In this document: positions 234 through 15,205 of the stretch, piece after piece
Position numbering within the stretch: the first letter of the stretch is position 1
How the letters are laid out: each line of letters opens with the position of its first letter
Assembly: GCA_946184695.1 (NCBI GenBank)
Contig: CAMHGK010000001.1
Location: forward strand, 1 to 55,928
Direction of reading: 5' to 3'
Length of the DNA: 55,928 nt
Source of the DNA: an uncultured Bacteroidales bacterium
GTDB taxonomy: Bacteria > Bacteroidota > Bacteroidia > Bacteroidales > Paludibacteraceae
Made by a program: the position numbers and the translations under genes
Notes under the pieces: generated by a model
Told to the model about the DNA's origin: nothing
What the model saw: the letters and a program-made list of their open reading frames with translations, nothing else
Database searches by the model: none

Positions 234-3200
234 ATGGCAGACAAGACCACTCGTCCGAATCTTATGCCCTCATCTCCCGATAAAACTACCCGTCCGAGCA
301 ATGCCCCATCATTCTCTGACAAGACCATCCGTCCCGGCATGGATCTTTCATCAAATGATAAGACCACTCGGCCCTCGGGCATACTATCTTCAGCTGCCAA
401 GACCATTCGACCTTCGGCTGACGACATTCAGAAGGTGGTGTCAGGGATAGAGCGCGAATATGTCATTGATGGTAAGCGATACCGCTATCAGCAAACCTTG
501 TCGAACGGAACAGGCGAGGGAGATATTCTGCTCGTAGAACACGGAGGAAAAAAATATGTCCTCAAACTCTATATTGAGGGAATAAAAATCACCAATCCTG
601 CGGTGCTTTCGCAAGTACGCAAACTCAGAGGCTCCGGACTGCTTGTCAATCTGTACAACTTCGGTACATGGACCCACCCCACCACCAAACAGCAGCGCGA
701 CTACGAACTGATGGAGTATTGCGAAGGAGGTGACCTCACCTCAGTCAATATCAACGGGGATGAGAAACGGCTCAAGCAGCTTGCAGTGATGATGGCGGCA
801 GCCATTGATTTCTGCCATCAGCACGGGTTCATACACGGCGACATCAAACCCGCCAACTTCATGTTTACAGATAAGAGTCAGAAGCATTTGGTGCTTTCCG
901 ACTTTGGTATATCCCTCACATGCAACAATAATGGCTCAGTCAGAACAGAGAACGCCGCAAGAACAAAAATCTATGCAGCCCCTGAGTTCTATCTCTCCAT
1001 ACCGGGAAGCAACGAGAGGGAGATATATACATCGTCAGACTACTATTCCCTTGGAATGACACTACTCACACTATGGATGGGCGAGCAGACCTTCAAACAG
1101 CAAGAATGGGAACTGATGAGCATGAAGATAAAAGGGAAAATCAAATACCCCGAAGACCTCTCCGACTACTCATTATCGCTTATCAAAGCTCTCACAAAGA
1201 CCGATCCTGCCGAACGTTGCACCTTCAGCGACATTGAAAAGTGGGCAAAAGGAGAAAAGGTATTTGAAGAACAGAAAAAGAAAAGCGACATCAACAAGCG
1301 CGACTTCTACGTACTCTTTAACGCGGGCAAACAGCAGGAAGCCCACTCACCCGAAGAACTCGCACAACTGATGCTCAAAGAGCAGACCCTGGCAACCAAA
1401 TACCTCTACAACGGACAGGTGGAAAAATGGTTGCAGGCGAATCTGCGACCTGAGCTCGAAACTGAGATAAAAGATATTGTAGAAAATCGCTGTCCAAATT
1501 CACAGAAGGAGGGATTGTTTTTCGCTTGCTATGCACTCGACCCCGCACTGCCCTACTATGATGTCAACGGCAATCCATGCACCTCAGGCTATGAAATAGG
1601 CATGGCAATCCTGAACAATACCGACAAATACCTGAAATCACTAACAAGTCTTGACGATTTGCTGTATGTTTTTTTGCAGACACACGATCTTGAGGACTTG
1701 GCAGATGAGCTATTCTACGCGATGGGCAGCGACGGAGATAATCAACTGTTAGGGTCTGCCTACGATAAACTGATGGAAACGGTCTATACACTCGATCCCC
1801 AACTGCCATATATCATAAAGACTGACGATGGAAGCGTAGTGACATGCAACACCTTAGACGACATCATTCGCGCCGAACACTACAGATGGCACAACAATAA
1901 TAAGATGATGCACGACCTCAAGACCTCATGGTTTGTGAATATCTGGGTGGGGCAGCGCTCAAAAGTGGCTTACCAGCGGATAAAGAAAATTATCGACGAG
2001 AACGACAAAAACGACTATGTGGTTGACGATGCCGTGCTTTACTGCCTGAATCCTGCTATATCATATAATTTTGAGCTTGACACATCAAGCACAAATTACT
2101 ATATGACCTATCAGCAGGTAGCACAACTGTTTAATTACTACTATAATCAGCGGCAAGAGGGAGTCGGCGCCACCAAATACTACAACTATCAGATAGACGA
2201 TAGCTTTATGCAAATCGGCAAGAAGAGCCAACTCTACTACTACTTCAAGTCGAAAGGAAGCTACGATGACAAGATTGATTGGATAAAGTACTGCTTCGAG
2301 CTCGACTCGAAGGACAATAAGAAAAAAGCAGGTCCGTACAACAAGACTATAGCTTTTTTCAAAGCGCTGAAAGGGTTAGGTATCAGTCCGTGCTATCGCA
2401 CAAAGAAAGGCAAGAATCTCTACAGCCTGAGCGACGTGAGGGGACTGAAAAAAAACGAGAGAGATGAAGAACTCGCCAACGGACTAAAAGACTATCTGAC
2501 CATATTCTTTCAGGAGGATCCGGCGCTCGACAAGTCGAAGAAATATAATTACGAGAAGGCGACCATCAAGTATTTGGAGTTTTTAGACCAGTTGTCGGGC
2601 GACATTGAAGAAGTGAAACGCTACAAAGAAGCCTCACAAAATGTGAAGGGTCTTTTGAGCGACATCAATCGTACATACGCTAAACTGCTTATAACCCGCA
2701 TAATGATTGCCCTGCTGTGCTTCGTTCCGCTGATATCATTAGCAGTGTTGCTCTGCGTTTTGGGATTGCCGTTTGAGGGTAATCCGCTGAAAGGCAACTC
2801 CGGGTCGTTTATAGAAGTATGTACGATAATACTATTTCTGCCGGTCTGCCTCTTGACGGAATTTGAGGGCAGGATAATCGGAGAGATAATTCTCTCAGCC
2901 ATACTCTCGGCAGCCGTCTATGGTTTGTTGTATCTGCTCATGTCGATATTGGTACCCGCAGCACCATATCTCATTGCGGCATTACTTATAGCTTTTGCTG
3001 TAGTCATCTATATAAAATGCTATCGGCAGTTCCCACTCAAACGCAACACAAAAAAGCAGCTTAACTCCACTAATTTCGAGCAGCTCTACGTCGAGCCGCT
3101 ACATTACGCCTACGACAAGACAAAATCTAAATTCTTTGATTCGAGTATTTCGACGGACATATACAATTATAGTTTGTACTTGGGCGAGGCTTTCAAAAAA

Positions 3201-3746
3201 CTTCTTCTGTTCGCCATTCCGACCATACTGTTTACCGTCGGACTATTCTGGCTGATGATATGGCTTACTCCGCGCATTGTTTCAAAACAAGCAAATGTAA
3301 TTCAGCAGACCGCAAACATGGTAGGCAAATGGACCGGAAAATTCGGAGATAAGAAATCGACCATTGACTTCAAGACCGTAACACCCGACTATGTTGAAGC
3401 CTATGTACATGTCCCCTTCTCACAAATGAGTAACGAAAGAGTAGCGGGTTCCATAAACATCAAAAAGAAGACTATGGTACTTGATGATATTCACAAAAAC
3501 GGAATCCTTGACGGAAAATACAATTGCACATTCACCGATACTGATAATGTTCTCTCACAAATAGAGGGCACATATTATAATCCGAAATCAGGAAAGAGAA
3601 TAGAATTCACTTATGCACGAAAACTCAAACCGGAAGAATTAGCGTTTGAAGAAGAGATGGCAAAAAAGACATTCTGGCAGATATGGCTCGGCATATTCCA
3701 AAACAAGTTTCATATATCAACTGAACAGCAACAAAACAATCAATGA
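234..3746 (+). CDS. Membrane-anchored Hanks-type Ser/Thr protein kinase (1170 aa) with N-terminal DKT[TI]RP repeats
   Basis: ATG at 234. Kinase motifs: Gly-loop GTGEGD, catalytic Lys in YVLKLY, HGDIKPANF catalytic loop, SDFG, AAPEF, SDYYSLG. After the kinase domain comes a ~480-aa unassigned region with recurring LDPxLPY-like segments (ALDPALPYYD, TLDPQLPYII, CLNPAISYNF). This is followed by a block of about 5-6 hydrophobic helices (aa ~815-1010) and a ~150-aa C-terminal domain. Confidence 0.9.
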   Translation: MADKTTRPNLMPSSPDKTTRPSNAPSFSDKTIRPGMDLSSNDKTTRPSGILSSAAKTIRPSADDIQKVVSGIEREYVIDGKRYRYQQTLSNGTGEGDILLVEHGGKKYVLKLYIEGIKITNPAVLSQVRKLRGSGLLVNLYNFGTWTHPTTKQQRDYELMEYCEGGDLTSVNINGDEKRLKQLAVMMAAAIDFCHQHGFIHGDIKPANFMFTDKSQKHLVLSDFGISLTCNNNGSVRTENAARTKIYAAPEFYLSIPGSNEREIYTSSDYYSLGMTLLTLWMGEQTFKQQEWELMSMKIKGKIKYPEDLSDYSLSLIKALTKTDPAERCTFSDIEKWAKGEKVFEEQKKKSDINKRDFYVLFNAGKQQEAHSPEELAQLMLKEQTLATKYLYNGQVEKWLQANLRPELETEIKDIVENRCPNSQKEGLFFACYALDPALPYYDVNGNPCTSGYEIGMAILNNTDKYLKSLTSLDDLLYVFLQTHDLEDLADELFYAMGSDGDNQLLGSAYDKLMETVYTLDPQLPYIIKTDDGSVVTCNTLDDIIRAEHYRWHNNNKMMHDLKTSWFVNIWVGQRSKVAYQRIKKIIDENDKNDYVVDDAVLYCLNPAISYNFELDTSSTNYYMTYQQVAQLFNYYYNQRQEGVGATKYYNYQIDDSFMQIGKKSQLYYYFKSKGSYDDKIDWIKYCFELDSKDNKKKAGPYNKTIAFFKALKGLGISPCYRTKKGKNLYSLSDVRGLKKNERDEELANGLKDYLTIFFQEDPALDKSKKYNYEKATIKYLEFLDQLSGDIEEVKRYKEASQNVKGLLSDINRTYAKLLITRIMIALLCFVPLISLAVLLCVLGLPFEGNPLKGNSGSFIEVCTIILFLPVCLLTEFEGRIIGEIILSAILSAAVYGLLYLLMSILVPAAPYLIAALLIAFAVVIYIKCYRQFPLKRNTKKQLNSTNFEQLYVEPLHYAYDKTKSKFFDSSISTDIYNYSLYLGEAFKKLLLFAIPTILFTVGLFWLMIWLTPRIVSKQANVIQQTANMVGKWTGKFGDKKSTIDFKTVTPDYVEAYVHVPFSQMSNERVAGSINIKKKTMVLDDIHKNGILDGKYNCTFTDTDNVLSQIEGTYYNPKSGKRIEFTYARKLKPEELAFEEEMAKKTFWQIWLGIFQNKFHISTEQQQNNQ
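240..413 (+). repeat. In-frame array of five DKT[TI]RP motifs spaced 12-14 aa apart at the kinase N-terminus
   Basis: Translation: DKTTRPNLMPSSP-DKTTRPSNAPSFS-DKTIRPGMDLSSN-DKTTRPSGILSSAA-KTIRPSADD. The copies use different synonymous codons (gacaagaccactcgtccg / gataaaactacccgtccg / gacaagaccatccgtccc / gataagaccactcggccc / aagaccattcgacct). Conservation is therefore at the peptide level rather than from a recent DNA duplication. Confidence 0.85.
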
Positions 3747-6700
3747 CATTTGATGATATGAATTGTCCACAATGCAATAAACCCAACAGAGAACAGGCAA
3801 GCTATTGCAAATGGTGCGGTAGCAAGTTGCAGAACAAGTCAGCAGATTGGTATGCAGACCTGATAGGTATGACTGAGGCTAAGCAGACCCTGAACGACAT
3901 CATCACTACCAACGATGCTCTGCGACTACGTGCTTCTGTCAACGGTATCAGGCTCTCACAAGAGCTCAACATGCTTATTCTCGGAGACTCCGGAACAGGA
4001 AAAAAGACTCTTCTTCATAAAATAGAACTGCTATTCTACCAACATGGTATCACCACCAAACCACAAGCCACGGTGGTTGACGCCTCTGTGTTCAATGAAT
4101 TTGTTAAGGATTTCGACAACAACATCATGAACGCACGCGGTGGCATACTTTGCATTCAAAATGCACAGAAGCTATTGCCTGACAACGAAATCAGACAACT
4201 CACTGACTTAGACATCCTGTTCAATGCCATGGACCGCTTCAACGGCAATCCGATAGTTATACTAATGGGTACCGAGAGCGGACTCGACAAGTTTGTCGCT
4301 AACAATCAGGAAGTATCCGACAAATTCAAATACATACTCCACATGAAAAGCTATAGCATTTCAGAACTCACTGAGCTTACTGAATTGCTGCTCAGAAAAA
4401 ACTATGCCCTACAACTTACCCCGGAAGCCAAGGACAAGTTAGAGCGAGTTTACAAGTATAGCTTTCGTGAATCGCCTACGATGAACATATCAGCGGCAAT
4501 TGCTAAAAACAAAGCTGAAGACATAATGAGGACCGTTGTTCAACGTGACACTAATGCTAACACCGTACTACCATGCGACATTCAAGGGAAAGAGTACATA
4601 CGAAAAACGACAGAACAAGCGCTTGCAGAGTTTGATGATTACGTTGGGATTGACAACATAAAACAAACAGTGCAAAATATCATCAACGAGTTAGACATCA
4701 GTGCCAGACGCGAAGGCAATGAGGCAAAACGTGTCATTACGGACCATTTCCTGTTTCTTGGCAACCCCGGAACGGGCAAGACCTCTATTGCGCGAGTGTT
4801 CGCAAATGTGCTTTGTTCGGTCGAGGCTCTGCCAATCGGACAATTAGTTGAGGTATCAAGAGACCAACTCGTAGCGCAATATTTAGGACAGACAGCACCA
4901 TTGGTACGACATTGGGTTGACAAGGCAATGGGAGGAGTATTGTTTATTGATGAAGCCTATACTCTCAAGCAGTCTGAAAACGACAATTTTGGGCAAGAAG
5001 CTATCGACGCACTACTCAAACTCATGGAAGACCGACGCGGACAGTTTGTCGTCATTGCTGCCGGATATACCAAAGAGATGGGAGAGTTTATTTCATCGAA
5101 CTCAGGTCTTGCCTCGCGTTTCAACAAGACTATCACTTTCAACGACTATACAGCAAGCCAACTGACAGAGATATTCCTTAGGTTAGTAAAAAAAGACAAA
5201 CTGACTCTCACAAATGAAGCAAAAGAAAGAATAGAAAACTTCTTCAGAAAGATATACCTCACCCGAACCGACAAATTCGGCAACGCCAGAGAGGTACGCA
5301 ACGTCTTAAAAAATGCCAAAACCAACCAGTCAAATAGAATAAATGAGGCAAAGCGCCTGGGTACTTATACTCCTTCCATGGACAACTACCTGACGGCAGA
5401 AGACATCGAAGGAGCAGAACAGATGAAGGAGAAAAATATCAATGAACTGCTACAAGAAATTGATGCCTTTGTCGGCATGGATGACGTAAAGAAACAGATT
5501 CGAGAAATAGCATTAAAAGTACAACAAGACAAAAAACGACAGGCTCTTGGAGCAGATGCCGAGATAACACCTATTCACATAGTGCTAACGGGCAATCCCG
5601 GCACAGGCAAAACGACCGTAGCAAAAATGCTCGGAAAGGTGTTTAAGTCAATAGACCTACTACCCGACAGCAAGGTTGTCAAGAAAGAACGATGCGACCT
5701 TATCAGTAATTATAAAAACGAAACGGCAAAACTCGTCAATAAGGCTTGCGACGAAGCTATGGGAGGCGTACTTTTTATCGACGAGGCATATTCCCTCATG
5801 CCCATCGATGCAGGAGGCGGAAAAGACCCCGAAGGCGTTGAAGCCGTAGAGGCACTGATGACTCGCATGGTCTCCGACAGCGGCAAATTCGTCGTAATAG
5901 TTGCAGGATACAAACAACAAATGATGGAGTTTGTCAAAAATGCCAATCCCGGATTCAAAAGGCGATTTACTAACTTCATGCATATCGACGACTATACCCC
6001 TCAGCAGTTAGAGCACATATTCTTAAATATCGTCAAGAAAAACGCATGGGAGATTGCACCTCAGGCTATGCCTTTACTAAAACAACTCATACAGCACAAA
6101 TACGATAGCAGAGACGAGAACTTCGGCAATGCCGCCGAGATGGACACACTATTCGGAACTATCAAAATGCGACAATCGGCACGAACTAACAAAATCCCCA
6201 ACGAACAGCTCGACCTGAAAACACTGCGAACCATCGAAGCCGAAGACATCCCTTACGAACAACCTCGGCAGGTTAACATCACGGATTGTCTCAAACAACT
6301 CGACAATCTCGTCGGATTAGAAAACGTGAAAAGCGAAGTGCGCATGTTGGCGCAAAGCATCATCGTCCAACAGCAACGAAACAAAGTACTGGGCAGACCC
6401 TACAAGGCAGAACTCGACCATTTCCTGTTTCTCGGCAACCCCGGAACAGGCAAGACTACCGTGGCACGCACTATGGCTGATATATTCTTCTCATTAGGAC
6501 TGCTACCCACCAATACTCTCATAGAGGTCAAACGCAAAGACATTGTGGCAGGATACCAAGGACAAACAGCTATCAACACCGAGAGAGTGGTCAAGAAAGC
6601 CATCGGAGGAGTGCTTTTCATAGACGAAGCCTACTCGCTCAAACAAGGACCACACGACGACTTCGGACAAGAAGCTATCAACACTCTACTCACCATGCTG

Positions 6701-7090
6701 CTCGACTACAAAGGCAAGATTGTGTGCATAGCCGCAGGCTATACTCGCGAGATGAACCAATGGCTCGCAAGCAACTCCGGACTCGCCTCACGGTTCAGCA
6801 AGACAATCACTTTCGACGACTATAACCCCGACGAACTCGCTGATATATTCATCCGATTAGCACAGAAAGAAGAACTCACCTTGACACCACAAGCAGAGGA
6901 ATGTATGCGCCGACATTTTACTCGGCTCTACCAAAATCGTAACGCAAATTTTGGAAACGCCCGGGAAGTGAATAATTTCTTCAAATTAGTGAAAGAACGA
7001 CAAAGTGCACGACTTACACCTGCCACCCTGAACAACACTGTCACCAAAGAGCAACTACTAACTCTCGAAGCCGAAGATTTTATAGTATAA
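3743..7090 (+). CDS. Zinc-ribbon protein with four tandem AAA+ ATPase modules (CbxX/CfxQ-SpoVK-like family), 1115 aa
   Basis: The ATG at 3743 overlaps the kinase TGA (ATGA, 3743-3746). The N-terminus is CPQC-x10-CKWC. Walker A/B per module: D1 GDSGTGKK / ILCIQN (degenerate), D2 GNPGTGKT / VLFIDEA, D3 GNPGTGKT / VLFIDEA, D4 GNPGTGKT / VLFIDEA. Recurrent SNSGLASRF, FGNAREV and AAGY motifs are typical of CbxX/SpoVK-type AAA+. Confidence 0.9.
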   Translation: MTFDDMNCPQCNKPNREQASYCKWCGSKLQNKSADWYADLIGMTEAKQTLNDIITTNDALRLRASVNGIRLSQELNMLILGDSGTGKKTLLHKIELLFYQHGITTKPQATVVDASVFNEFVKDFDNNIMNARGGILCIQNAQKLLPDNEIRQLTDLDILFNAMDRFNGNPIVILMGTESGLDKFVANNQEVSDKFKYILHMKSYSISELTELTELLLRKNYALQLTPEAKDKLERVYKYSFRESPTMNISAAIAKNKAEDIMRTVVQRDTNANTVLPCDIQGKEYIRKTTEQALAEFDDYVGIDNIKQTVQNIINELDISARREGNEAKRVITDHFLFLGNPGTGKTSIARVFANVLCSVEALPIGQLVEVSRDQLVAQYLGQTAPLVRHWVDKAMGGVLFIDEAYTLKQSENDNFGQEAIDALLKLMEDRRGQFVVIAAGYTKEMGEFISSNSGLASRFNKTITFNDYTASQLTEIFLRLVKKDKLTLTNEAKERIENFFRKIYLTRTDKFGNAREVRNVLKNAKTNQSNRINEAKRLGTYTPSMDNYLTAEDIEGAEQMKEKNINELLQEIDAFVGMDDVKKQIREIALKVQQDKKRQALGADAEITPIHIVLTGNPGTGKTTVAKMLGKVFKSIDLLPDSKVVKKERCDLISNYKNETAKLVNKACDEAMGGVLFIDEAYSLMPIDAGGGKDPEGVEAVEALMTRMVSDSGKFVVIVAGYKQQMMEFVKNANPGFKRRFTNFMHIDDYTPQQLEHIFLNIVKKNAWEIAPQAMPLLKQLIQHKYDSRDENFGNAAEMDTLFGTIKMRQSARTNKIPNEQLDLKTLRTIEAEDIPYEQPRQVNITDCLKQLDNLVGLENVKSEVRMLAQSIIVQQQRNKVLGRPYKAELDHFLFLGNPGTGKTTVARTMADIFFSLGLLPTNTLIEVKRKDIVAGYQGQTAINTERVVKKAIGGVLFIDEAYSLKQGPHDDFGQEAINTLLTMLLDYKGKIVCIAAGYTREMNQWLASNSGLASRFSKTITFDDYNPDELADIFIRLAQKEELTLTPQAEECMRRHFTRLYQNRNANFGNAREVNNFFKLVKERQSARLTPATLNNTVTKEQLLTLEAEDFIV

Positions 7091-7119
7091 TTGATAAATG
7101 ACCTTACAATTCCACCGTC

Positions 7120-7701
7120 ATGAAATGCCCCAAATGTAAATCAGAAATAGAAGACGACAGCCTGTTCTGTGATCAATGCGGAACAGAACTCATGATTTGT
7201 CCACAATGCGGCACCTTAGGCAAGGGCAAACGATGTACACAATGCGGCACTGAACTCATAAAAAAGAGCTCTGCCTCCCAACAGTCACACACCACTTTAC
7301 TCACCGCTCAACCTATACCCGCTCCTGCTCAACCTACACCCGCTTCAGCTCAACCTACACCCGCTTCAGTTCAACCTACACCCGAAAAGACAACACGTCC
7401 CGGACAAAACCTCCTACCCGGACATCTCGTTTGCCCGGAACATCATATCAGATTGGGGTTGGCAGACGGCGTTATCATCGGGCGGCGAGGTCATTATAGC
7501 GCTGTTTTTGCACAATATGGCGACATCTCCGGAATACATGCCAAACTCACAATATCTCCCGCCGGTTGCTCTGTGGAAGACCTCGAAAGTACCAACGGCA
7601 CATGGCTCAACGGACAACAACTCAAACCACACATCAACTACCCCATACATTGCGGCGACATACTCAAATTCTCATCCCTCACATTCAATGTTGAACCCTA
7701 A
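7120..7701 (+). CDS. Double zinc-ribbon / Pro-rich linker / FHA-domain protein (193 aa)
   Basis: N-terminus: CPKC-x10-CDQC followed by CPQC-x8-CTQC. The linker is (AQPTPAS)n, then EKTTRP. FHA signature: GRRG...SGIHAKL...STNGTWLNGQQL. Confidence 0.9.
   Translation: MKCPKCKSEIEDDSLFCDQCGTELMICPQCGTLGKGKRCTQCGTELIKKSSASQQSHTTLLTAQPIPAPAQPTPASAQPTPASVQPTPEKTTRPGQNLLPGHLVCPEHHIRLGLADGVIIGRRGHYSAVFAQYGDISGIHAKLTISPAGCSVEDLESTNGTWLNGQQLKPHINYPIHCGDILKFSSLTFNVEP
7306..7383 (+). repeat. 21-bp in-frame tandem repeat (about 3.7 copies) encoding the AQPTPAS linker of the FHA protein
   Basis: gctcaacctatacccgctcct / gctcaacctacacccgcttca / gctcaacctacacccgcttca / gttcaacctacaccc. Copies 2 and 3 are identical. 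Confidence 0.9.
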
Positions 7702-7720
7702 AGAAAAGACAAATTTATTT

Positions 7721-7763
7721 CACCATTCTCACCATTCTCACCATTCTCACCATTCTCACCATT
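7721..7763 (+). repeat. 9-bp tandem repeat (CACCATTCT) x4.8 in the FHA-PP2C intergenic spacer
   Basis: Four perfect copies at 7721-7756 plus the partial copy caccatt. It starts 19 nt after the FHA stop (7699-7701) and ends 16 nt before the PP2C ATG (7780). Confidence 0.95.
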
Positions 7764-7779
7764 AAATCATTAAAAAATT

Positions 7780-8592
7780 ATGATCAGACTAACCTTCTCT
7801 TTAGCTTCAGATGTCGGCTGCCTGCGACACAACAACGAAGATATGATTCTTCTCAACGGCGAGCTATTCCGAGACGAACAAAACAGCGGCTCGTTCTACA
7901 TGACCCGCGAAAGTCGTTTCGAAGCATGCGTTGCCGATGGTATGGGCGGACACGAGGGAGGCGAGTTTGCATCTGAGCTCGCCACTCAATTCTTCGATGA
8001 CTTCCTGACAGACCTTCAGCCCGGACTCACATCAGAGCAACTGATAGGGCTGATACGGCAATGGGCGGTAACTACTCATCAACGAATAGTGGACAAGAGT
8101 CTGCAACTACCTCAATATACCGGCATGGGAACTACTTTTGTCGGATTGTTTTCGTACGAAGATAAGGTCTTTTCCATAAATATCGGCGACAGCAGACTTT
8201 ATAGATTCCGCAAAGGCATACTCCGGCAACTCTCCACCGACCATTCCGTAGCTTCGGTAACAGGCGACAGCAACATCCCCACCAATGTCATTTACAACTC
8301 ACTCGGAGCCGGCAATAACGCTTTTGCAGATGTAGAAGATATCTCTGACAGAATAATGCCGGACGACACCTACCTCATCTGCTCCGACGGCCTTTCCGAC
8401 ATGCTTTCCGACACCGAAATTGAACATATTCTAACACAAACTAATACAAAGACGCACACCGACTCGGCGCAACCGTCCGCCAACCCGAGCACAGCCGCAA
8501 GCATTGCTAATCAGCTCATCGAAGCTGCCAAACAAGCCGGCGGAAAAGATAACATCTCAGCAATACTGCTAACTTTCTGTCCCGACGCCTGA
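7780..8592 (+). CDS. PP2C-family (PPM) Ser/Thr protein phosphatase
   Basis: Motifs: RHNNEDM, ADGMGGHEGGE, GMGTT, IGDSRLY, CSDGLSD, GGKDNIS. Confidence 0.92.
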   Translation: MIRLTFSLASDVGCLRHNNEDMILLNGELFRDEQNSGSFYMTRESRFEACVADGMGGHEGGEFASELATQFFDDFLTDLQPGLTSEQLIGLIRQWAVTTHQRIVDKSLQLPQYTGMGTTFVGLFSYEDKVFSINIGDSRLYRFRKGILRQLSTDHSVASVTGDSNIPTNVIYNSLGAGNNAFADVEDISDRIMPDDTYLICSDGLSDMLSDTEIEHILTQTNTKTHTDSAQPSANPSTAASIANQLIEAAKQAGGKDNISAILLTFCPDA

Positions 8593-8686
8593 ATACATTC
8601 CAAAACTATTACCATTAGGGCACTTCTAAAAATTGCTGTAAGTGTTAAATAAGTATACAAAACTTTCCCTCATAAGAGAGAATAAA

Positions 8687-8758
8687 TTTTCATTTTGGGT
8701 AATTTTGGGTAATTGTTGACTAACATTTCATTTTAGGTAATTTTGGATAATTTTTGAC
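8687..8758 (+). repeat. Two imperfect 34-bp direct repeats (30/34 identical), each carrying a TAATTTTG box
   Basis: 8687-8720 is ttttcattttgggtaattttgggtaattgttgac and 8725-8758 is atttcattttaggtaattttggataatttttgac. TAATTTTG occurs at 8700-8707 and 8738-8745. Each unit ends in TTGAC. Confidence 0.8.
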
Positions 8759-8848
8759 AGAATAAAAATGAGAAAAACGAAGTTTTTCGTTAAGCTACCA
8801 TCCATGTCTGTCAATTATCCGCCTTTTTTGCAATATTTTTGCAGAAAA

Positions 8849-8880
8849 TTTGTGTATTAAAAATAAATATCTTACCTTTG
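8849..8880 (+). promoter_or_regulatory. Bacteroidetes-type promoter for the rpsF operon (TTTG-N20-TACCTTTG)
   Basis: TTTG at 8849-8852 and TACCTTTG at 8873-8880. This matches the Bacteroides sigma-AB consensus (-33 TTTG / -7 TAnnTTTG). It lies 88 nt upstream of the rpsF ATG. Confidence 0.7.
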
Positions 8881-8967
8881 CACGCTTTTTCCGAAAAAAG
8901 CAAGATAAGGCTGCAAGCTTTAGTTATGGCAAGCAGCAAGTATTAACCAATAACAACTACAAAACAG

Positions 8968-9324
8968 ATGTTAAATCATTACGAAGCCGCTTTCATTCTG
9001 ACTCCCGTTTTGTCTGAACCACAGATGAAGGAAGCGGTTGACAAATTCGAGAACCTTCTCAAGGAGAATGGTGGCACCATTCTGAACCGCGAGGAGTGGG
9101 GTCTGAAGAAATTGGCTTACCCCATCCAAGGCAAGACAACGGGATTCTATGCCTTACTGCAATTTGATGTAGAACCGGCCGTTATCGCTACCCTCGAAAC
9201 AGCTTTCCGTCGCGACGAAAAAGTACTGCGCTTCCTTTCGTTCCGCCTCGACAAGTATGCATTTGAGTATGCAGAAAAACGCCGCAATGTTAACCTTAAA
9301 AAACAACAGAAAGAGGAGGCTTAA
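8968..9324 (+). CDS. rpsF: 30S ribosomal protein S6
   Basis: [13 protein letters not shown]...GFYALLQF... is typical of S6. It is followed by S18 and L9 in the conserved operon order. Confidence 0.95.
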
Positions 9325-9326
9325 TT

Positions 9327-9590
9327 ATGGCAGAACAAGAAATTCGCTATCTCACACCGCAGCAGAGCGACCAGAAGAAAAAGAAGTATTGCCGTTTCAA
9401 AAAGAGCGGTATCAAATACATCGACTACAAAGACCCTGAGTTCCTCAAGAAGTTCCTCAACGAGCAAGGCAAGATTCTGCCTCGACGCATCACCGGCACC
9501 TCTCTGAAGTTCCAGCGCAAGGTAGCACAAGCAGTTAAAAGAGCACGCCACTTGGCTCTGCTCCCGTACGTAACCGATATGATGAAATAA
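9327..9590 (+). CDS. rpsR: 30S ribosomal protein S18
   Basis: [29 protein letters not shown]...[19 protein letters not shown]. Confidence 0.95.
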
Positions 9591-9603
9591 GGAGGGCAAT
9601 ACT

Positions 9604-10098
9604 ATGGAAGTTATACTTATTCAAGACGTTGCCAATCTGGGCTACAAAAACGACATTGTAAAGGTAAAAGACGGCTATGGCCGCAACTACCTCATCCCCC
9701 GCAAGCTTGCTGTTATTGCAAACGAAAGCGCCAAGAAGCAGCTCGCCGAGAATCTCAAACAGCAGGCTCATAAGCTCGCCAAACTCAAAGACGATGCCGT
9801 AGTTCTTGCAAGCAAACTCGAAGCCGCACATCTCACCATCGCTGCCAAAGCAAGCGAGGGCGGCAAGATATTCGGCTCTATCACCAACGCACAACTCTCT
9901 GAGGCTCTCGAAGCTCTCGGCATCAGCATCGACCGCAAGCTCATCACCGTTGAACCCGTTAAGGAACTCGGCGAAGGTAAGGCTACGGCTCGTCTGCACA
10001 AAGAAGTTAAGGCTGAAATCCACTTCCGCGTTGTAGCTGAGAAGGAAGCACAAAACGATAACGCTGCTCAACAGCAAGAAAATGAAGAGCAAGCCTAA
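9604..10098 (+). CDS. rplI: 50S ribosomal protein L9
   Basis: MEVILIQDVANLGYKNDIVKVKDGYGRNYLIPRKLA is the canonical L9 N-terminus. Confidence 0.95.
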   Translation: MEVILIQDVANLGYKNDIVKVKDGYGRNYLIPRKLAVIANESAKKQLAENLKQQAHKLAKLKDDAVVLASKLEAAHLTIAAKASEGGKIFGSITNAQLSEALEALGISIDRKLITVEPVKELGEGKATARLHKEVKAEIHFRVVAEKEAQNDNAAQQQENEEQA

Positions 10099-10124
10099 TA
10101 GACAATCACTAAAATGCTGAAATT

Positions 10125-10379
10125 ATGAAAAAAGGTATTCATCCCGATAACTATCGCGTAGTGGTTTTCAAAGATATGTCCGACGGAACTCAGTTCTTCA
10201 GCCGTTCCACCGCTGCCACTAAAGATACAATCGACATCGACGGACAGACATATCCGCTTATCAAACTCGAGATTTCTAACACTTCTCACCCCTTCTACAC
10301 CGGCAAGTCAAAACTCGTCGATACCGCAGGACGTGTTGATAAGTTCATGTCACGCTACGGCAACCGCCACAAGAAATAA
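10125..10379 (+). CDS. rpmE: 50S ribosomal protein L31, type B (no CxxC zinc motif)
   Basis: [10 protein letters not shown]...SHPFYTGK. It lacks the Cys pairs found in type A L31. Confidence 0.9.
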
Positions 10380-10402
10380 TCTGTAGTCAGATACTCTCTA
10401 TA

Positions 10403-10458
10403 AGCTATCAGCTATCAGCAGTCAGCCCGAAAAAGCTGATAACTGATAACTGATAGCT
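10403..10458 (+). terminator. Long imperfect hairpin built from heptamer repeats, downstream of rpmE
   Basis: Left arm agctatcagctatcagcagtcagc (10403-10426), loop ccgaaaaa, right arm gctgataactgataactgatagct (10435-10458). The arms are 24 nt with 4 mismatches, and there is no clear U-tract. Confidence 0.5.
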
Positions 10459-10480
10459 GATTTAATATATGTAGTCAACT

Positions 10481-11410
10481 ATGGCATCCAACACGCAGCT
10501 CACCGTCAAATCTGAGACTACGCTCATCTGTTTCCTTGAAGATAAGATGGGCGGCATGAGCCGTACCAGCATCAAGCAACTCCTCACCCACAGGCAAGTA
10601 AGCGTCAATGGGAAAATAACCACTCTGCCTACCACCCCCCTTAGCCCTGACGATGAGATAACCATCCGCTCCGGTATGCCGTCGGCGGAACTTCATCACC
10701 CCAAACTGCGCGTCGTATATGAGGATAACGATATCATCGTGGTCGAGAAAAAGGAAGGTCTGCTCACCGTTGCCACCCACCCGGGCTCCAAAGAGACAAC
10801 CGTATTCTCCATTCTCAAGAGCTACATCCGACGCAGCAACCCGCGGGAAGGAGTCTATACCGTACACCGCCTCGACCGCGAGACGTCAGGGCTGCTGGTC
10901 TTTGCTAAAAGCAAACAGCTGCAAGAATATATGCGCGAATGGTGGCGCCAGTTGGTCAAGAAACGCACCTATGTGGCAGTGGCTGAAGGACTATTTGAAC
11001 AACCTCAGGGACGCATAGTAACCTGGCTGACCGAGGACAAGCGCAATGCCGTAGTCTATTCCTCACCCGTAGATGATGGAGGCAAGCAGGCCATCACCAA
11101 CTACAAGGTGATAGCCGAAAGCCAAAAGCAGCCGTCCGTCAGCGACGAACAGTACATACCGCTATCGCTCGTCGAACTGAACCTTGAGACTGGTCGCACC
11201 AATCAGATTCGCGTACACCTTGCTTCTGTGGGGCATCCCGTAGCAGGCGACCGCAAATACGGCTCAGGACGAGAGCTACCCATCGACCGACTTGCACTGC
11301 ACGCATGCGTGCTTGAGTTCATACATCCCGCCACGGAGCAGGTGATGCACTTCGAAACACCCGTGCCAAGAGAATTCAACCGCCTCTTCCACTCCGACAA
11401 GCAAAACTGA
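10481..11410 (+). CDS. RluA-family rRNA pseudouridine synthase with an N-terminal S4-like domain
   Basis: HRLDRETSGLLVFAK catalytic motif and GRTNQIRVHL. Confidence 0.85.
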   Translation: MASNTQLTVKSETTLICFLEDKMGGMSRTSIKQLLTHRQVSVNGKITTLPTTPLSPDDEITIRSGMPSAELHHPKLRVVYEDNDIIVVEKKEGLLTVATHPGSKETTVFSILKSYIRRSNPREGVYTVHRLDRETSGLLVFAKSKQLQEYMREWWRQLVKKRTYVAVAEGLFEQPQGRIVTWLTEDKRNAVVYSSPVDDGGKQAITNYKVIAESQKQPSVSDEQYIPLSLVELNLETGRTNQIRVHLASVGHPVAGDRKYGSGRELPIDRLALHACVLEFIHPATEQVMHFETPVPREFNRLFHSDKQN

Positions 11411-11422
11411 CAATCAGCCGAC

Positions 11423-11482
11423 AAGCAGGCAAGCAGGCAAGCAGCCGAGCAGGCAAGCAGGCAGGCAAGCAGGCAAGCGGCC
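11423..11482 (+). repeat. Octamer tandem array (AAGCAGGC)n, about 7 units with variants
   Basis: aagcaggc aagcaggc aagcagcc gagcaggc aagcaggc aggc aagcaggc aagcggcc. It begins 12 nt after the pseudouridine synthase stop. There is no inverted complement, so it is not a hairpin. Confidence 0.85.
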
Positions 11483-11535
11483 GACATAACACCTCCTCCC
11501 CCACCCCTATACTAACCTACAAACCCGCAGCTCAC

Positions 11536-11961
11536 ATGGCAAAACAAGACAAAATCGACTCGCTCTACATGCGCATGGCGCATATCTGGGCTGAGAACTC
11601 CTACTGCCAACGCCGACAAGTGGGAGCCCTTCTTGTCAAAGACAAGATGATTATCTCCGACGGCTATAATGGTACTCCGTCGGGCTTTGAAAACAACTGC
11701 GAAGATGAAAACAACGTCTCCAAACCATACGTTCTACATGCAGAGGCCAATGCCATAAGCAAAGTGGCACGCTCTAACAACTCCTCCGACGGAGCCACAC
11801 TCTATGTGACCGACTCGCCCTGCATGGAATGCTCCAAACTTATCATACAAGCAGGTATCAAACGTGTGGTCTATAACAGAGAATACCGACTCATCGACGG
11901 CATCGAACTGCTCCGACGAGCAGGCATAGAGATAACCAAAATAGACGATCCCATCGGCTGA
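11536..11961 (+). CDS. Deoxycytidylate (dCMP) deaminase
   Basis: HAEANAI and PCMECSKLI zinc-binding motifs of the CMP/dCMP deaminase fold. Confidence 0.88.
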   Translation: MAKQDKIDSLYMRMAHIWAENSYCQRRQVGALLVKDKMIISDGYNGTPSGFENNCEDENNVSKPYVLHAEANAISKVARSNNSSDGATLYVTDSPCMECSKLIIQAGIKRVVYNREYRLIDGIELLRRAGIEITKIDDPIG

Positions 11962-12052
11962 AAACACACAAAAACGATTCTCAAAGCACCCTACTCCATA
12001 AATAGGCAATTTCACAAATAAGCATATTATTCCATAAATATATATAGCAGCA

Positions 12053-13657
12053 ATGAAAAAATACATATTCCCGACTTTTGTAGTCGTCGCACTCGCAGTA
12101 GGCATCATCGTAGGTAATAGCCTCGGACAAAACGCCTACGCACAAACTATCAACTGGAGCAACTTCCGCATGCCTCAGAGCAAAATCGACATGATGCTAC
12201 GCTACGTTCAGCAGGCCTACGTCGATCCTATTGATATCGACTCACTTACCGACGAGGTGATGGTGGAAATGGTACAGAATCTCGACCCTCACAGCGCTTA
12301 TATTCCAAAGAAAGACCTCGAGTTGGTCAACTCAGAGCTCGACGCTACATTCTCAGGTATAGGCGTGCAGTTCTCTATTCAGAACGACACCGTAAGCATT
12401 GTTGCCGTTATAAGCGGCGGTCCGAGCGAGGGTGTGGGAGTGCTTGCCGGCGACAAGATAGTGGAGGTCAACGACACTGCTTTTTGCGGCAAAGGAATCA
12501 ACAACGAGCGTGTCATGCGCACCCTGCGCGGACCTAAAGGGACACAGGTCACCTTAGGCGTTATGCGCTTCGGAGAACCGGAGATTCTCAAATTCACCAT
12601 CACCCGAGGCGACATTCCCGTCCACTCCGTTGATGCCGCCTTCCTCATCGACAACAGCATCGGATTTGTGCGCGTCAATAAGTTTGCTGAAAAGACATAC
12701 GACGAGTTTATCGACGCCCTTGCCAAACTTCGTGCTCAAGGAGCAAAGAGCTATATCGTCGACCTTCGCGAGAACTCAGGTGGCTATATGGAGCAAGCCA
12801 TACGCATGGCCAACGAGTTCCTTTCTGACGGAGATATGATAGTATATGCAGAAGGTCGAGCCTATCCTAAATATGAGGCACGAGCCAACCGTCAGGGACG
12901 CTTCCGCCAAACGCCACTCGTCGTTCTGATAGACGAGTTCTCTGCCTCCGCCTCAGAGATTTTTGCAGGTGCTATGCAAGACCACGACCGAGCCACCATC
13001 ATCGGACGCCGCTCTTTCGGCAAGGGACTTGTGCAACAGCAGATTCCATTCTCCGATGGCAGCGCAGTCAGACTGACCGTGGCACGCTACTATACACCCT
13101 CAGGCAGATGCATACAGAAACCTTACGAACTGGGCAAAAACGACGACTATATGAAAGATATCGTCGAGCGTTTCGACCATGGCGAGTTCTTCTCAAAAGA
13201 TAGCATTCACCTCAAGGACACTACCCGCTACTACACCGACAACGGTAGAGTGGTATATGGAGGCGGAGGAATAATGCCTGACATCTTTATCGGAAGAGAT
13301 ACTACACTGAATACCCCATGGTACAACCGCGTGGTCAATCGCGCCTTTACATACCAATTCGCATACCAATATACCGACCGCCATCGCAAACAACTATCCA
13401 AGCACAAGAATTGGCAAGATCTCGAGAAATACCTCAACAAGCAAAACTGGTTAGAGGAGTTCATAAGCTTCTGCAAAGAGAAAGGCGTGGAACCCAACCG
13501 CGCGGAAATAGAAAAGTCGAAGCCGCTAATCAACCGACTTGTCAATGCATACATTGTCCGCAACATACTCGGTGACGACGGATTCTTCCAGCTCTACGAG
13601 CGCGACGATGAGATAACTAAGCGCGCCGTTGAAGAACTACGCAAGCAGCAAAAATAG
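12053..13657 (+). CDS. S41-family C-terminal processing peptidase with a PDZ domain
   Basis: N-terminal signal/anchor, a PDZ-like GGPSEGVGVLAGDKIVEVN, and catalytic-region motifs FSASASEIFAGA and GKGLVQ. Confidence 0.88.
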   Translation: MKKYIFPTFVVVALAVGIIVGNSLGQNAYAQTINWSNFRMPQSKIDMMLRYVQQAYVDPIDIDSLTDEVMVEMVQNLDPHSAYIPKKDLELVNSELDATFSGIGVQFSIQNDTVSIVAVISGGPSEGVGVLAGDKIVEVNDTAFCGKGINNERVMRTLRGPKGTQVTLGVMRFGEPEILKFTITRGDIPVHSVDAAFLIDNSIGFVRVNKFAEKTYDEFIDALAKLRAQGAKSYIVDLRENSGGYMEQAIRMANEFLSDGDMIVYAEGRAYPKYEARANRQGRFRQTPLVVLIDEFSASASEIFAGAMQDHDRATIIGRRSFGKGLVQQQIPFSDGSAVRLTVARYYTPSGRCIQKPYELGKNDDYMKDIVERFDHGEFFSKDSIHLKDTTRYYTDNGRVVYGGGGIMPDIFIGRDTTLNTPWYNRVVNRAFTYQFAYQYTDRHRKQLSKHKNWQDLEKYLNKQNWLEEFISFCKEKGVEPNRAEIEKSKPLINRLVNAYIVRNILGDDGFFQLYERDDEITKRAVEELRKQQK

Positions 13658-13738
13658 CCTCAGCGCAGCTATATAACCACCTTCACCTAAAACAACCACT
13701 GAGTTCCTCCAACTGCCACCTTTTAATACGCGTTTACA

Positions 13739-14899
13739 ATGCAACAAACTAATTTCATCGACTACGTAAAGATATATTGCCGCTCAGGCAAAGGCGGTGC
13801 AGGCAGTATGCACTTCCATCGCGCCAAGTATCTGCCTAAGGGCGGACCCGATGGTGGCGACGGCGGCAGAGGCGGACATATTATCCTTCGCGGCAACCGC
13901 AACCTATGGACACTGCTGCACTTGAAATATCAGCGCCACCTGTTTGCAACCGACGGAGGCAATGGCGGTGAGAGCCGCAGTTTCGGCAAGGACGGAGAGG
14001 ACAAGATAATAGAAGTCCCCTTAGGTACGGTATGCTACGATGGCGACAGCGGTGAGTTTCTTGCCGAAGTCAGAGAGCATGGCGAAGATATAGTACTGCT
14101 CAAAGGCGGCAGAGGCGGCAGGGGCAACTGGCACTTCCGTACCGCCACTAACCAAGCCCCGCGCTACGCACAACCCGGAGAACCTGCCACCGAAAGAAAT
14201 ATCATACTGCAACTAAAGGTGCTTGCCGACGTCGGACTCGTAGGGTTCCCCAATGCCGGAAAATCAACGCTATTGTCGGTGGTGAGTGCCGCCAAACCTG
14301 AGATTGCCGACTACCCCTTCACTACCCTAACTCCGCAATTAGGAATTGTCAGCTACCGCGACAACCGCTCGTTCTGCATGGCCGACATACCGGGAATAAT
14401 AGAAGGAGCAGCAGAGGGCAAAGGACTCGGACTGCGCTTTCTAAGGCACATCGAGCGCAATAGCGTGCTGCTATTCATGGTTCCCGTAAGCTCTGAGAAT
14501 ATCGCTAAAGAATACAACATTCTGCTTTCTGAGTTAGAGAAATACAACCCCGAACTACTGACCAAAGCCCGCTTGCTCGCCATAAGCAAATGCGACATGG
14601 CTGACCAAGAAATGCTAAAACAAGCCGAGAAGACCATGCCGACGGATATCAGTCATGTATTCATCTCATCTGTAAGCGGACAAGGCATAGAGCAACTCAA
14701 AGATATGCTATGGCAAGAGTTAGAGAAGGAAGAGAACCAAGTGATAGAAATCTCACACCTGCCTATCGACATCAAGAAGATTGAAAGCGAAGATAGCGGC
14801 GCCGAGACCGAGCAAGAAGAACAACATACTATCTACCTCAACGAAGTAGAAGAAGAGTGGGACCTGAGCAAGTACAAAGGCATCGGCTGGGACGAGTAA
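13739..14899 (+). CDS. obg: GTPase Obg
   Basis: [18 protein letters not shown], the Gly-rich Obg fold, G1 GFPNAGKST, and an acidic C-terminal extension. Confidence 0.95.
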
Positions 14900-14904
14900 T
14901 TGAC

Positions 14905-14939
14905 AATGCATAATGCATAATTCATAATGCATAATTTAT
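14905..14939 (+). repeat. Heptamer tandem array (AATGCAT)x5 with variants, 5 nt after the obg stop
   Basis: aatgcat aatgcat aattcat aatgcat aatttat. The ORF-track ATG at 14927 lies inside this array. Confidence 0.9.
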
Positions 14940-14944
14940 ACAAA

Positions 14945-15157
14945 ATGATAACTGATATGGAAAATGTTACTATGAATTACGACGAAGCTATAAAGCAACT
15001 TGAGCAGATCATGCACGAGATAGAAACCGACGAGGCCATGCCTCTTAGTGTGTTCAAACAGAAAGTAAAGCAAGCACGCGAACTCATTGACTTTTGCGAC
15101 AAGCAGATAACCAATATCGAATCAGAACTCAAGACTTTAGACATGGAAACAGAATAG
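14945..15157 (+). CDS. xseB: Exodeoxyribonuclease VII small subunit
   Basis: NYDEAIKQLEQIMHEIETDEAMPLSVFKQKVKQARELIDFCDKQI fits the XseB helical-hairpin pattern. The start is uncertain: in-frame ATGs occur at 14927, 14945, 14957 and 14972. I prefer one downstream of the repeat array. Confidence 0.75.
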   Translation: MITDMENVTMNYDEAIKQLEQIMHEIETDEAMPLSVFKQKVKQARELIDFCDKQITNIESELKTLDMETE

Positions 15158-15178
15158 CTCCAAGACCGCCTTGCTATT

Positions 15179-15205
15179 AGAATAAGAAATTAGAAATTAG
15201 AAATA
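15179..15205 (+). repeat. Heptamer tandem array (AGAAATT)n downstream of xseB
   Basis: agaataa(g) / agaaatt / agaaatt / agaaata, immediately 5' of the terminator hairpin. Confidence 0.7.

Follow-up and report, generated by a model that had tools for sequence, protein, structure and literature searches.

The window analysed here is one entire contig of 55,928 bp from an uncultured Bacteroidales bacterium of the Paludibacteraceae (GenBank assembly GCA_946184695.1, contig CAMHGK010000001.1), and its first nucleotide falls inside the first gene of an operon on the forward strand. All coordinates below refer to that strand unless a minus sign is given. The first gene, which encodes a multi-zinc-ribbon protein, is represented by its 3' end (1-178, the last 58 codons, with a TAG stop at 176-178), its 5' part being lost at the contig start. 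It is followed by an open reading frame (ORF) for a Ser/Thr kinase (234-3746, 1170 aa), an ORF for an AAA+ protein (3743-7090, 1115 aa) whose start overlaps the kinase stop by 4 nt (ATGA, 3743-3746), an ORF for a zinc-ribbon FHA adaptor (ZnR-FHA; 7120-7701, 193 aa) after a 29-nt gap, and an ORF for a PP2C phosphatase (7780-8592, 270 aa) after a 78-nt gap that contains a 9-bp tandem repeat. An earlier annotation made from the letters alone (the sequence-only reading) had placed four same-strand ORFs here with this overlap, these gaps and this repeat, and all of its coordinates were confirmed. Its domain calls were likewise borne out by hidden Markov model (HMM) scans, which returned Pkinase, AAA/CbbX-type, DZR plus FHA, and PP2C matches. 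Its count of four genes was too low: the multi-zinc-ribbon gene at nt 1-178, cut by the contig start, is the fifth.

Bacteroidota and Ignavibacteriota share this cassette as a real and strictly conserved five-gene operon. The window's own proteins served as probes on 86 fetched loci; the relatives came from an alignment-based contig scan with generic Walker-A patterns and are a sample, not a census (a single-sequence scan of genome contigs detected no relatives, and exact-sequence look-ups of the window AAA+ and PP2C proteins returned no other contig). The order multi-zinc-ribbon (DZR) protein, kinase, AAA+ protein, ZnR-FHA and PP2C, on one strand, recurred in every one of the 19 non-window loci of the zinc-ribbon AAA+ clade except L007, and the neighbourhood of the four genes grouped by the sequence-only reading is conserved in relatives with that one exception. 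Hosts include Muribaculaceae, Bacteroides, Prevotella/Prevotellaceae, Paludibacteraceae, Cryptobacteroides and large uncultured Bacteroidales genomes. The same order was seen in Ignavibacteriaceae (L087), Melioribacteraceae (L088, with six AAA+ modules), a further uncultured lineage (L089) and two Bacteroides cellulosilyticus-type contigs (L116, L117), and the multi-zinc-ribbon gene preceded the kinase in every cassette locus whose contig extends that far. Across about 25 independent loci in two phyla the cassette was syntenic and tightly coupled, with unrelated flanks (polysaccharide genes, purine genes, an efflux pump, type IX secretion system cargo, toxin-antitoxin genes with a transposase, a TonB receptor), and for this reason we treat the five genes as one functional unit. 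Median intergenic distances in 18-19 cassettes were 4, 2, 12 and 6 nt, and 4-nt overlaps were common; gaps this short, together with the overlaps, strongly imply that the cassette is co-transcribed and translationally coupled. About 60 other fetched loci, with two- or three-module CbbX-like proteins and different N-termini, had zero partner genes.

The truncated first gene could be completed from L001, a 99%-identical Logan contig (relative P0001) that supplied the upstream extension. The translation of nt 2-178 is identical to the C-terminus of a 319-aa ORF there (L001:2618-3577), which ends 55 nt before the kinase start. Products of this family are about 310-350 aa long, and an alignment of 15 orthologues showed two to four DZR-type ribbons (Pfam DZR, 4e-10), a coiled coil and a low-complexity stretch. 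The C-terminus carries a conserved Cys/His domain, W-x-C-N-x5-H-x2-P-x2-C-x2-P-x-LGG-x-W, for which permissive Pfam and profile searches returned no relatives. The 135-nt region before the gene in L001 holds a 15-bp inverted repeat, GGGCACATCTAAAAA ... TTTTTAGATGTGCCC, with its arms about 48 nt apart (2491-2568).

Several loci showed local variation. In L007 (Muribaculaceae), the DZR, kinase and AAA+ genes were present and FHA and PP2C were missing from the 4.4 kb downstream (13337-17795), where fragmented efflux genes follow the AAA+ gene; this locus is either a decayed or three-gene variant or an assembly artefact of a metagenome-assembled genome (MAG). L010 carries an extra 386-aa ORF between its FHA and PP2C genes (8399-9559), whose product has an N-terminal transmembrane (TM) segment and, in its C-terminal part, a motif like that of GNAT acetyltransferases; the ORF is not found in the close relative L009 and appears to be a lineage-specific sixth gene. 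L116 and L117 encode an identical AAA+ protein and share about 98% DNA identity from about nt 4550 on, and their upstream regions are wholly different (one has TonB receptor, XusB and PepSY genes, the other UvrC and GidA). In this region (about nt 3650-5490) the switch between the two falls in a non-coding leader of about 1 kb rich in palindromic repeats such as CACCACAGAGTAACACAGAGTT...AACTCTGTGTTACTCTGTGGTG. Downstream of PP2C, L089 has a SUKH/SMI1_KNR4 immunity-type gene and unknown ORFs (14806-17794) and L116, of B. cellulosilyticus type, has three DUF2589 paralogues (14883-17832), neither of which is conserved across cassettes. The other large, uncharacterised tandem CbbX-like families, found without kinase, FHA or PP2C partners (L016, L019, L020, L022-L086) include two-module forms of about 870 aa in Saprospiraceae, Chitinophagaceae and Streptomyces, forms of about 1200-1350 aa in Melioribacteraceae and Firmicutes, and one of 2114 aa in L023.

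The downstream boundary of the unit was also clear. A spacer of 375 nt, AT-rich, separates the PP2C gene from rpsF (8968), and a consensus scan placed a Bacteroides-type promoter for rpsF (TTTG-N20-TAccTTTG) at 8849-8880, outside the system. The window contains nine such promoter sites against 1.3 expected, none of them within the cassette, and rpsF adjoins the cassette in the window alone among the cassette loci examined; the sequence-only reading was right to separate the unit from the rpsF operon. Sites from a sigma-70 and terminator consensus scan were no more numerous than in shuffled sequence and were not used. In the AT-rich spacer, ahead of the rpsF promoter, positions 8692-8754 hold a degenerate 10-bp tandem repeat, ATTTTGGGTA x6.5. 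The 9-bp repeat in the FHA-PP2C gap (7720-7763) consists of 4.9 perfect copies of TCACCATTC (Tandem Repeats Finder score 88, 100% matches). It is not conserved in other cassettes and can be called lineage-specific because the median FHA-PP2C gap elsewhere is 6 nt; it may tune translation or expression of the phosphatase, or it may be a slippage-variable element.

Base composition had been read as hinting at low G+C in the cassette. The hint dissolved on measurement: G+C is 0.456 in the cassette versus 0.473 in the rest of the window, and both third-position G+C (GC3) and codon-usage distance of the four cassette genes lie inside the spread of 31 other window genes. We therefore rejected a foreign origin on compositional grounds, as all three measures are native. 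Nearby window genes are housekeeping genes (pseudouridine synthase, dCMP deaminase, S41 peptidase, Obg, PckA, glycosyltransferases). Further along, a small RNA of the FopS family (Bacteroidetes; Rfam RF04319, 76 bits) lies at 16798-16870 (-), divergent from pckA (17066-18820), with a consensus Bacteroides promoter directly upstream of it at 16875-16906 (-).

These distributional data bear on an anti-phage or conflict role of the abortive-infection type, which the sequence-only reading had offered as an option and in which the kinase would detect infection or envelope damage and the AAA+ protein or the five-TM region of the kinase would act as a toxic effector. The cassette is accessory and patchy (244 helical-domain clusters among 1.84 billion representatives), self-contained and set in a new flank in each genome, even between strains with an identical AAA+ protein, whose upstream flanks differ; its Thr repeats and AAA+ module number diversify fast; and L005 adjoins ParDE, transposase, HNH and DndB genes. 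Neighbourhoods are nevertheless mostly housekeeping or polysaccharide genes, with no island enrichment seen, and the native composition and codon usage point the same way. The best PADLOC matches of the kinase (mad6, MkoA, PD-T4-6) and of the AAA+ protein (IetA) were generic, domain-level hits in PADLOC-DB v2 that extended to TRIP13, whereas FHA and PP2C had none and no known system has this architecture. The cassette showed no recognised effector such as a nuclease, TIR, protease or pore-former, and ATPases of the SpoVK/CbbX/EccA clade are known as chaperones, not toxins (PMC11513918). An IMG/VR scan placed no cassette on viral contigs; it gave merely generic kinase matches in giant viruses, and phage carriage was rejected. 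With no positive evidence in its support, we consider a defence role unlikely.

Kinase, adaptor and phosphatase

The kinase is a multi-domain protein whose architecture was read from domain matches and an AlphaFold2 (AF2) model (mean pLDDT 81). A disordered N-terminal tail (residues 1-60, 234-413; pLDDT 30-36) precedes a Hanks-type Ser/Thr kinase domain (456-1253; residues 75-340 of the model, pLDDT ~90; Pfam Pkinase, 1.3e-29). Its K111, HGD 201-203, N208, DFG 223-225 and APE 249-251 are invariant in 42 kinase homologues, and the enzyme is predicted to be active. A helical cytoplasmic domain (residues 356-790, 1299-2603; pLDDT 85-95) follows, then a membrane region (2607-3314) with five predicted TM helices and an amphipathic cytoplasmic loop. 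The helices, at about 814-845, 856-876, 881-906, 910-931 and 986-1013 (Kyte-Doolittle, 19-residue window), agree with those of the AF2 model, and by hydropathy the kinase is the sole protein of the five with hydrophobic segments. The C-terminal region (residues 1031-1170, 3324-3746) is modelled as a beta-rich domain of eight strands (1031-1128) followed by helices. With the kinase domain placed in the cytoplasm and an odd number of predicted TM helices, this C-terminal domain would lie outside the cytoplasm, where it is a candidate sensor. A permissive Pfam scan and a profile search of the PDB returned no match for it. Kinase homologues carry SH3_3 (SH3b), WG repeats, YARHG or TPR at the same post-TM end, and a trigger through the membrane or extracytoplasmic part, as the sequence-only reading had envisaged, is plausible on the strength of the predicted helices, the beta-rich domain and these relatives.

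The helical domain had no Pfam match at E<=5 and no PDB match with a profile, and Foldseek of the kinase model against the PDB was dominated by kinase-domain matches, with nothing on the helical or C-terminal domains. A phmmer search with the helical domain against the 1.84 billion representatives yielded the 244 matches, almost all of which occupy one and the same position in proteins about 1000-1400 aa long, the rest being shorter and apparently partial. Judged from these searches, this ~430-aa domain is unique to the cassette kinase family and defines it; it is a candidate docking platform or client.

The N-terminal tail contains five copies of DKT[TI]RP, at K4, K17, K30, K43 and K56, with an exact 13-aa period. 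Such repeats are a family trait: in 149 kinase homologues the density of TxR was 4.24 per 100 aa in the N-termini versus 0.18 in the rest, a 23-fold difference. The consensus across the family is [DE]-K-T-[ILVM]-R-P, and some lineages substitute other Thr-centred repeats (DKTLN, GTAAP, ATAVP, QKSDT, PQKTAV, PQGTAV). The number of repeats, judged by eye, bore no consistent relation to the number of AAA+ modules. The adaptor carries a single related motif, EKTTRPG (7384-7404), about 26 residues before its FHA domain. The KT[TI]RP motif that the sequence-only reading had noticed in two proteins was confirmed: the kinase tail has five copies, the FHA linker has one, and the three remaining cassette proteins have none.

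The tail repeat and the linker motif vary together. The window pairs DKT[TI]RP with EKTTRPG, L002 pairs DKT[IV]RP with EKTIRPG, L005 pairs DKTIR[TS] with DKTIRIA, and L116 pairs DKTLRP with EKTMRPG. In lineages with a different repeat the linker follows, with PQKTAV and ATAVQ in L009 and PQGTAV and PQGTAVSP in L021. The linker motif matched the cognate kinase repeats in the window, L002, L005, L006, L009, L012, L021, L089 and L116, and similarity between tail and linker was greater within genomes than between genomes (permutation p = 0.002). The tail array, the linker copy and the invariant FHA residues described below are as expected if the tail threonines are autophosphorylation sites of the kinase and ligands of the FHA domain. 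We propose that the tail is a multi-site phospho-acceptor and FHA-docking array; by analogy with GarA/OdhI, the linker copy may be a competing or self-inhibiting site.

The adaptor itself consists of a double zinc ribbon (7126-7245; Pfam DZR, 1.4e-09), a Pro-rich linker built from a 21-bp repeat x3.8 that encodes PTPA(S/P)AQ (7306-7384), and an FHA domain (7471-7671; Pfam FHA, 8e-12). The GR, SxxH and NG motifs and the zinc ligands C3, C6, C17, C20, C27 and C39 are invariant in 20 orthologues. The linker repeat differs in the L001 strain (10519-10758; TAQTVPASAQPT versus TAQPIPAPAQPT), which suggests repeat-driven linker variation.

The best PDB match of ZnR-FHA is ArnA from Sulfolobus (5a8i_A, 3.8e-10), aligned over essentially the whole chain (query 2-183 versus ArnA 4-194). 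This full-length homology raises the question of an Arn-like transcription control, in which ZnR-FHA, the multi-zinc-ribbon protein or both would bind DNA through their ribbons, kinase phosphorylation would release them or sequester them at the membrane, the AAA+ protein would disassemble complexes, and the output would be genes elsewhere in the genome. The ArnA homologue ST0829 has been reported to bind a promoter in a phosphorylation-sensitive manner, and the repression of archaellum genes by ArnA and ArnB is governed by two kinases, ArnC and ArnD, and by the phosphatase PP2A (PMC7472852); a cassette with no effector of its own would fit an output elsewhere. Yet no established DNA-binding domain, a helix-turn-helix included, is present in the cassette proteins, ribbons of the DZR type more commonly serve as protein- or membrane-proximal modules, the vWA partner ArnB is not present, and no conserved target gene lies nearby. 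A simple transcription switch would also leave an AAA+ machine of 1100-1900 aa unexplained, and we regard this alternative as improbable.

The PP2C protein matched PP2C_2 (1e-12) and the Stp1/IreP model (3.7e-45), and its PDB matches were tPphA (2j82, 6e-24) followed by PppA (6jkv), Stp1 and PstP. Its metal-binding Asp residues are invariant in orthologues, and it is predicted to be an active Ser/Thr phosphatase of the PPM type, the eraser of the switch. The combination of writer, reader and eraser with an AAA+ protein, as first proposed from the sequence, thus stands, with catalytic and phosphothreonine (pThr)-binding residues invariant throughout.

A membrane Hanks kinase encoded together with PP2C and an FHA protein also recalls PknB-PstP-FhaA/FhaB of Actinobacteria and Firmicutes, and on that pattern the cassette could regulate the cell wall or division as a housekeeping function, the AAA+ protein being an accessory. 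The best NCBIfam match of ZnR-FHA is indeed FhaB/FipA, though at 1.7e-08 it falls far under the curated cut-off; some kinase homologues end outside in a peptidoglycan-binding SH3b domain, and SpoVK promotes MurG function (PMC11513918). The kinase, however, is not of the PASTA type: the PknB_PASTA_kin model scored 58 bits against a 450-bit cut-off, and Pfam scans, permissive ones included, found no PASTA repeats. The genes rodA and pbpA and other division genes are unlinked in the loci examined. Moreover, the family is rare and not universal in Bacteroidales and therefore is no essential core regulator. We find a PknB-like housekeeping role very doubtful.

The zinc-ribbon AAA+ protein

The AAA+ protein begins with a zinc ribbon (C8, C11, C22, C25; 3764-3817; Pfam DZR, 1.4e-05 on the N-terminal fragment) whose four cysteines are invariant in 60 homologues. 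Zinc ribbons thus occur in three of the five cassette proteins, namely the multi-zinc-ribbon, AAA+ and ZnR-FHA proteins; the sequence-only reading had seen the last two of these, both supported by DZR matches. That related ribbons begin three of five proteins points to shared assembly or address modules.

Beyond the ribbon, the protein matched Pfam AAA (1.3e-52) and AAA_lid_6 (2.2e-37), and the SpoVK, EccA and CbbX models TIGR02881, TIGR03922 and TIGR02880 each matched in four stretches; the TIGR02881 cut-off is exceeded only because the four module scores add up. Each module, of about 278 aa, forms a complete CbbX-like unit. The best PDB matches were CbbX (3syl/3zuh, 1.6e-46) and EccA1 (9lur, 6.5e-45), and CbbX was also the top Foldseek match. 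Module 1 (3860-4597) is CbbX-like and degenerate, with a GTGKK Walker A and, in place of DE, a QN Walker B in the window and DN or EN as the family consensus. It is therefore predicted to bind nucleotide without hydrolysis, that is, to be hydrolysis-dead. Modules 2-4 (4610-7090) are canonical, each with GNPGTGKT, DEAY and AAA_lid_6, and the two motifs are invariant in 60 homologues. Invariant as well are the sensor-1 GY pairs (G441-Y442, G722-Y723, G999-Y1000) and the SRF/RRF arginine fingers (R459, R741, R1017). At sensor 2, modules 2 and 4 have an invariant Arg (N514/R516 and N1072/R1074, motif GNAR), and these two modules also carry the pore-loop motif YxGQT; sensor 2 of module 3 reads GNAA in the window, with G795/N796 invariant.

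AAA+ relatives number thousands, and the closest are zinc-ribbon proteins of about 826, 1110, 1390, 1670 and 1940 aa that share one architecture: a zinc ribbon, one Walker-B-dead module and two to six active modules. Among cassette-linked proteins, the module total is three in L021, four in the majority including the window, five in L006, six in L088 and seven in L005 and L012. The sequence-only reading of four CbxX/SpoVK-type modules holds for the window insofar as four stretches match; the first of them is degenerate, and across the family four is one value in a range of three to seven.

In the AF2 model of the AAA+ protein the modules are well folded (pLDDT 86) and their relative placement is not well defined (pTM 0.55). 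Two-module stretches superposed on D1-D2 of substrate-bound Cdc48, DRG1 and Rix7 with a TM-score of ~0.57 and an rmsd of 7-9 Å. A hydrolysis-dead tier is typical of type-II AAA+ scaffolding rings. The dead module, along with a free module number that is hard to fit to a side-by-side six-fold ring, hints that the modules may stack as hexamer tiers, and such stacking, still speculative, would explain why any module number is tolerated. A more daring picture can be drawn from this, in which six chains would form a translocation tube of three to seven tiers, one dead scaffold tier plus n active ones, with assembly licensed by the pThr array through the ArnA-like adaptor at the membrane kinase. We think it unlikely to be correct as a whole; if it were, it would be a new AAA+ architecture and a signal-gated protein-extraction or unfolding machine of gut Bacteroidota, with envelope or invader proteins as possible clients.

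Proposed mechanism

Gene content, order and coupling, the intact catalytic and binding residues, the Thr array and the motif co-variation are the observations from which an interpretation has to start. In our tentative reading, the cassette is a phospho-switch anchored in the membrane, with a dedicated AAA+ chaperone under its control, and we give this reading somewhat less than an even chance of being right. On the predicted membrane topology, the beta-rich domain after the TM helices would let the kinase sense a cue from outside the cytoplasm, in the envelope, and the signal would run inward to autophosphorylation of the Thr repeats on the disordered N-terminal tail. The FHA domain of the adaptor would dock on the pThr sites of the tail, and the adaptor's own motif copy, about 26 residues before the domain, might serve self-inhibition of the GarA/OdhI kind or hand-over. 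Zinc ribbons of the adaptor, the AAA+ protein and the multi-zinc-ribbon protein would then bring the AAA+ machine to the kinase, where it would remodel a narrow client, the likeliest candidates being the multi-zinc-ribbon protein, the helical domain of the kinase or a membrane-proximal enzyme of envelope biogenesis. PP2C would reset the switch. We favour the envelope as the arena because variable peptidoglycan- or ligand-binding domains occur at the outside end of the kinases and because the ATPase clade is known for envelope chaperoning (SpoVK-MurG, EccA).

Several points weigh against this interpretation. Of 17 non-redundant cassettes, about 9-10 show clear co-variation of tail and linker, the linker copy is absent in Prevotella-type loci, and KT-x-R-P is not known as an FHA ligand consensus. 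The kinase topology is predicted from a hydropathy count, and the inter-module geometry of the AAA+ protein is uncertain in the model. No client or output was identified for the AAA+ protein, nor did the cassette loci examined reveal a sixth conserved gene. A search of the 135-nt region that L001 supplies ahead of the first gene turned up no Bacteroides promoter consensus. Finally, L007 lacks FHA and PP2C, so that the switch is dispensable in at least one lineage unless that MAG is mis-assembled.

A prior description of the cassette was not found in the full-text literature (subscription-only papers lay outside the search), and Pfam, NCBIfam and PADLOC hold no model specific to its proteins. 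In public records the proteins bear generic names ('AAA family ATPase', 'protein kinase') or mistaken ones, as in B. cellulosilyticus DSM 14838, where 'putative stage V sporulation protein K' is used; our analysis corrects this misannotation in Bacteroides. Ser/Thr-phosphorylation signalling is almost unexplored in Bacteroidota, and the operon occurs in gut species that are in culture and genetically tractable (B. cellulosilyticus DSM 14838, B. intestinalis, Proteiniphilum). It would offer a compact, testable system in which an outside sensor is tied to a dedicated AAA+ chaperone through a writer/reader/eraser switch. The natural series of three to seven CbbX-type modules bears on how multi-module AAA+ proteins assemble, and the co-evolving multi-Thr array and FHA adaptor may correspond, in bacteria, to the Arn module of archaea and to SCD/FHA signalling in eukaryotes.

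Comparison with known systems

The T6SS (type VI secretion system) resembles the cassette in that a membrane Hanks kinase with an outside sensor, a PP2C, an FHA protein and an AAA+ ATPase are encoded together (PpkA, PppA, Fha1 and ClpV). In P. aeruginosa, PpkA-PppA-Fha1 phospho-gating operates with recruitment of ClpV. The same principle is seen in an Agrobacterium T6SS variant, in which phospho-dependent FHA binding gates assembly of the machine (PMC3953482). Unlike T6SS loci, no cassette flank, nor nt 8968-23639 of the window, contains TssA-M, Hcp or VgrG. The cassette ATPase is of the CbbX/SpoVK/EccA type with three to seven tandem modules, whereas that of T6SS is the ClpB-type ClpV, and the multi-Thr tail array, the unique helical domain and three zinc-ribbon proteins further set the cassette apart.

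The Arn module of Sulfolobus likewise combines a zinc-ribbon FHA protein, similar to ours over its full length, with a Hanks-type kinase and a Ser/Thr phosphatase in a phospho-dependent complex, as is proposed here. ArnC phosphorylates ArnA in vitro, and ArnA has the phosphoprotein ArnB as its complex partner and PP2A as an interactor (PMC7472852). The module differs in being archaeal, in having the vWA protein ArnB and PP2A rather than PP2C, in genes that do not form one compact operon, and in lacking both an AAA+ ATPase and a membrane kinase with a Thr array; conversely, no vWA domain was found in the five cassette proteins or the conserved neighbourhood.

By its clade models, AAA_lid_6, GY sensor 1 and sensor-2 Arg, the ATPase belongs with the SpoVK-EccA-like clade (CbbX, SpoVK, EccA), for which Delerue et al. 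gave GY in the sensor-1 region and a retained second arginine as signatures (PMC11513918). Its members act as chaperones dedicated to a narrow set of clients, and several have ties to envelope biogenesis; the paper makes no mention of a kinase or FHA linkage, and linkage to a kinase/FHA/PP2C set is not reported (PMC11513918). Clade members have one module per chain and form homohexamers, whereas the cassette protein fuses three to seven modules, the first of them predicted to be dead, and has a zinc ribbon as its only N-terminal recruitment domain. SpoVK proper, from sporulating Bacillota, has a short beta-alpha N-terminal domain and a linkage to SpoIVA/SpoVID, in contrast to the zinc-ribbon N-terminus seen here and to the Bacteroidales host, to which the FopS small RNA and the Bacteroides-type promoters of the window also attest.

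The cassette adaptor recalls GarA and OdhI of Actinobacteria in that a single Thr motif precedes its FHA domain by a few tens of residues in one polypeptide and resembles the sites that the cognate kinase would phosphorylate, a likeness that suggests possible intramolecular pThr-FHA closure. The motifs themselves differ (KTxRP versus ETTS), and in Prevotella-type cassettes there is no such motif. GarA and OdhI regulate enzymes of the tricarboxylic acid cycle; neither has a zinc ribbon, and no AAA+ ATPase is encoded alongside them.

Archaeal Vps4/ESCRT-III loci (the Halo_FHA and 'main' clades) come close in another way, in that a classical AAA+ ATPase is encoded there next to a phosphatase, a Ser/Thr kinase of the membrane and an FHA protein, the last of which has been proposed to select phosphorylated cargo (PMC10936438). 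In contrast to these loci, the cassette has no detectable ESCRT-III, CdvA or adaptin-like protein, its ATPase is multi-module and of another clade, and its hosts are bacteria. Control of an AAA+ protein by a kinase, an FHA protein and PP2C thus has precedents in the T6SS pathway, the archaeal Vps4 loci and the Arn network, and the genuinely new parts of the cassette are its multi-module zinc-ribbon CbbX-type ATPase, its Thr-array kinase with a private helical domain, and its multi-zinc-ribbon protein.

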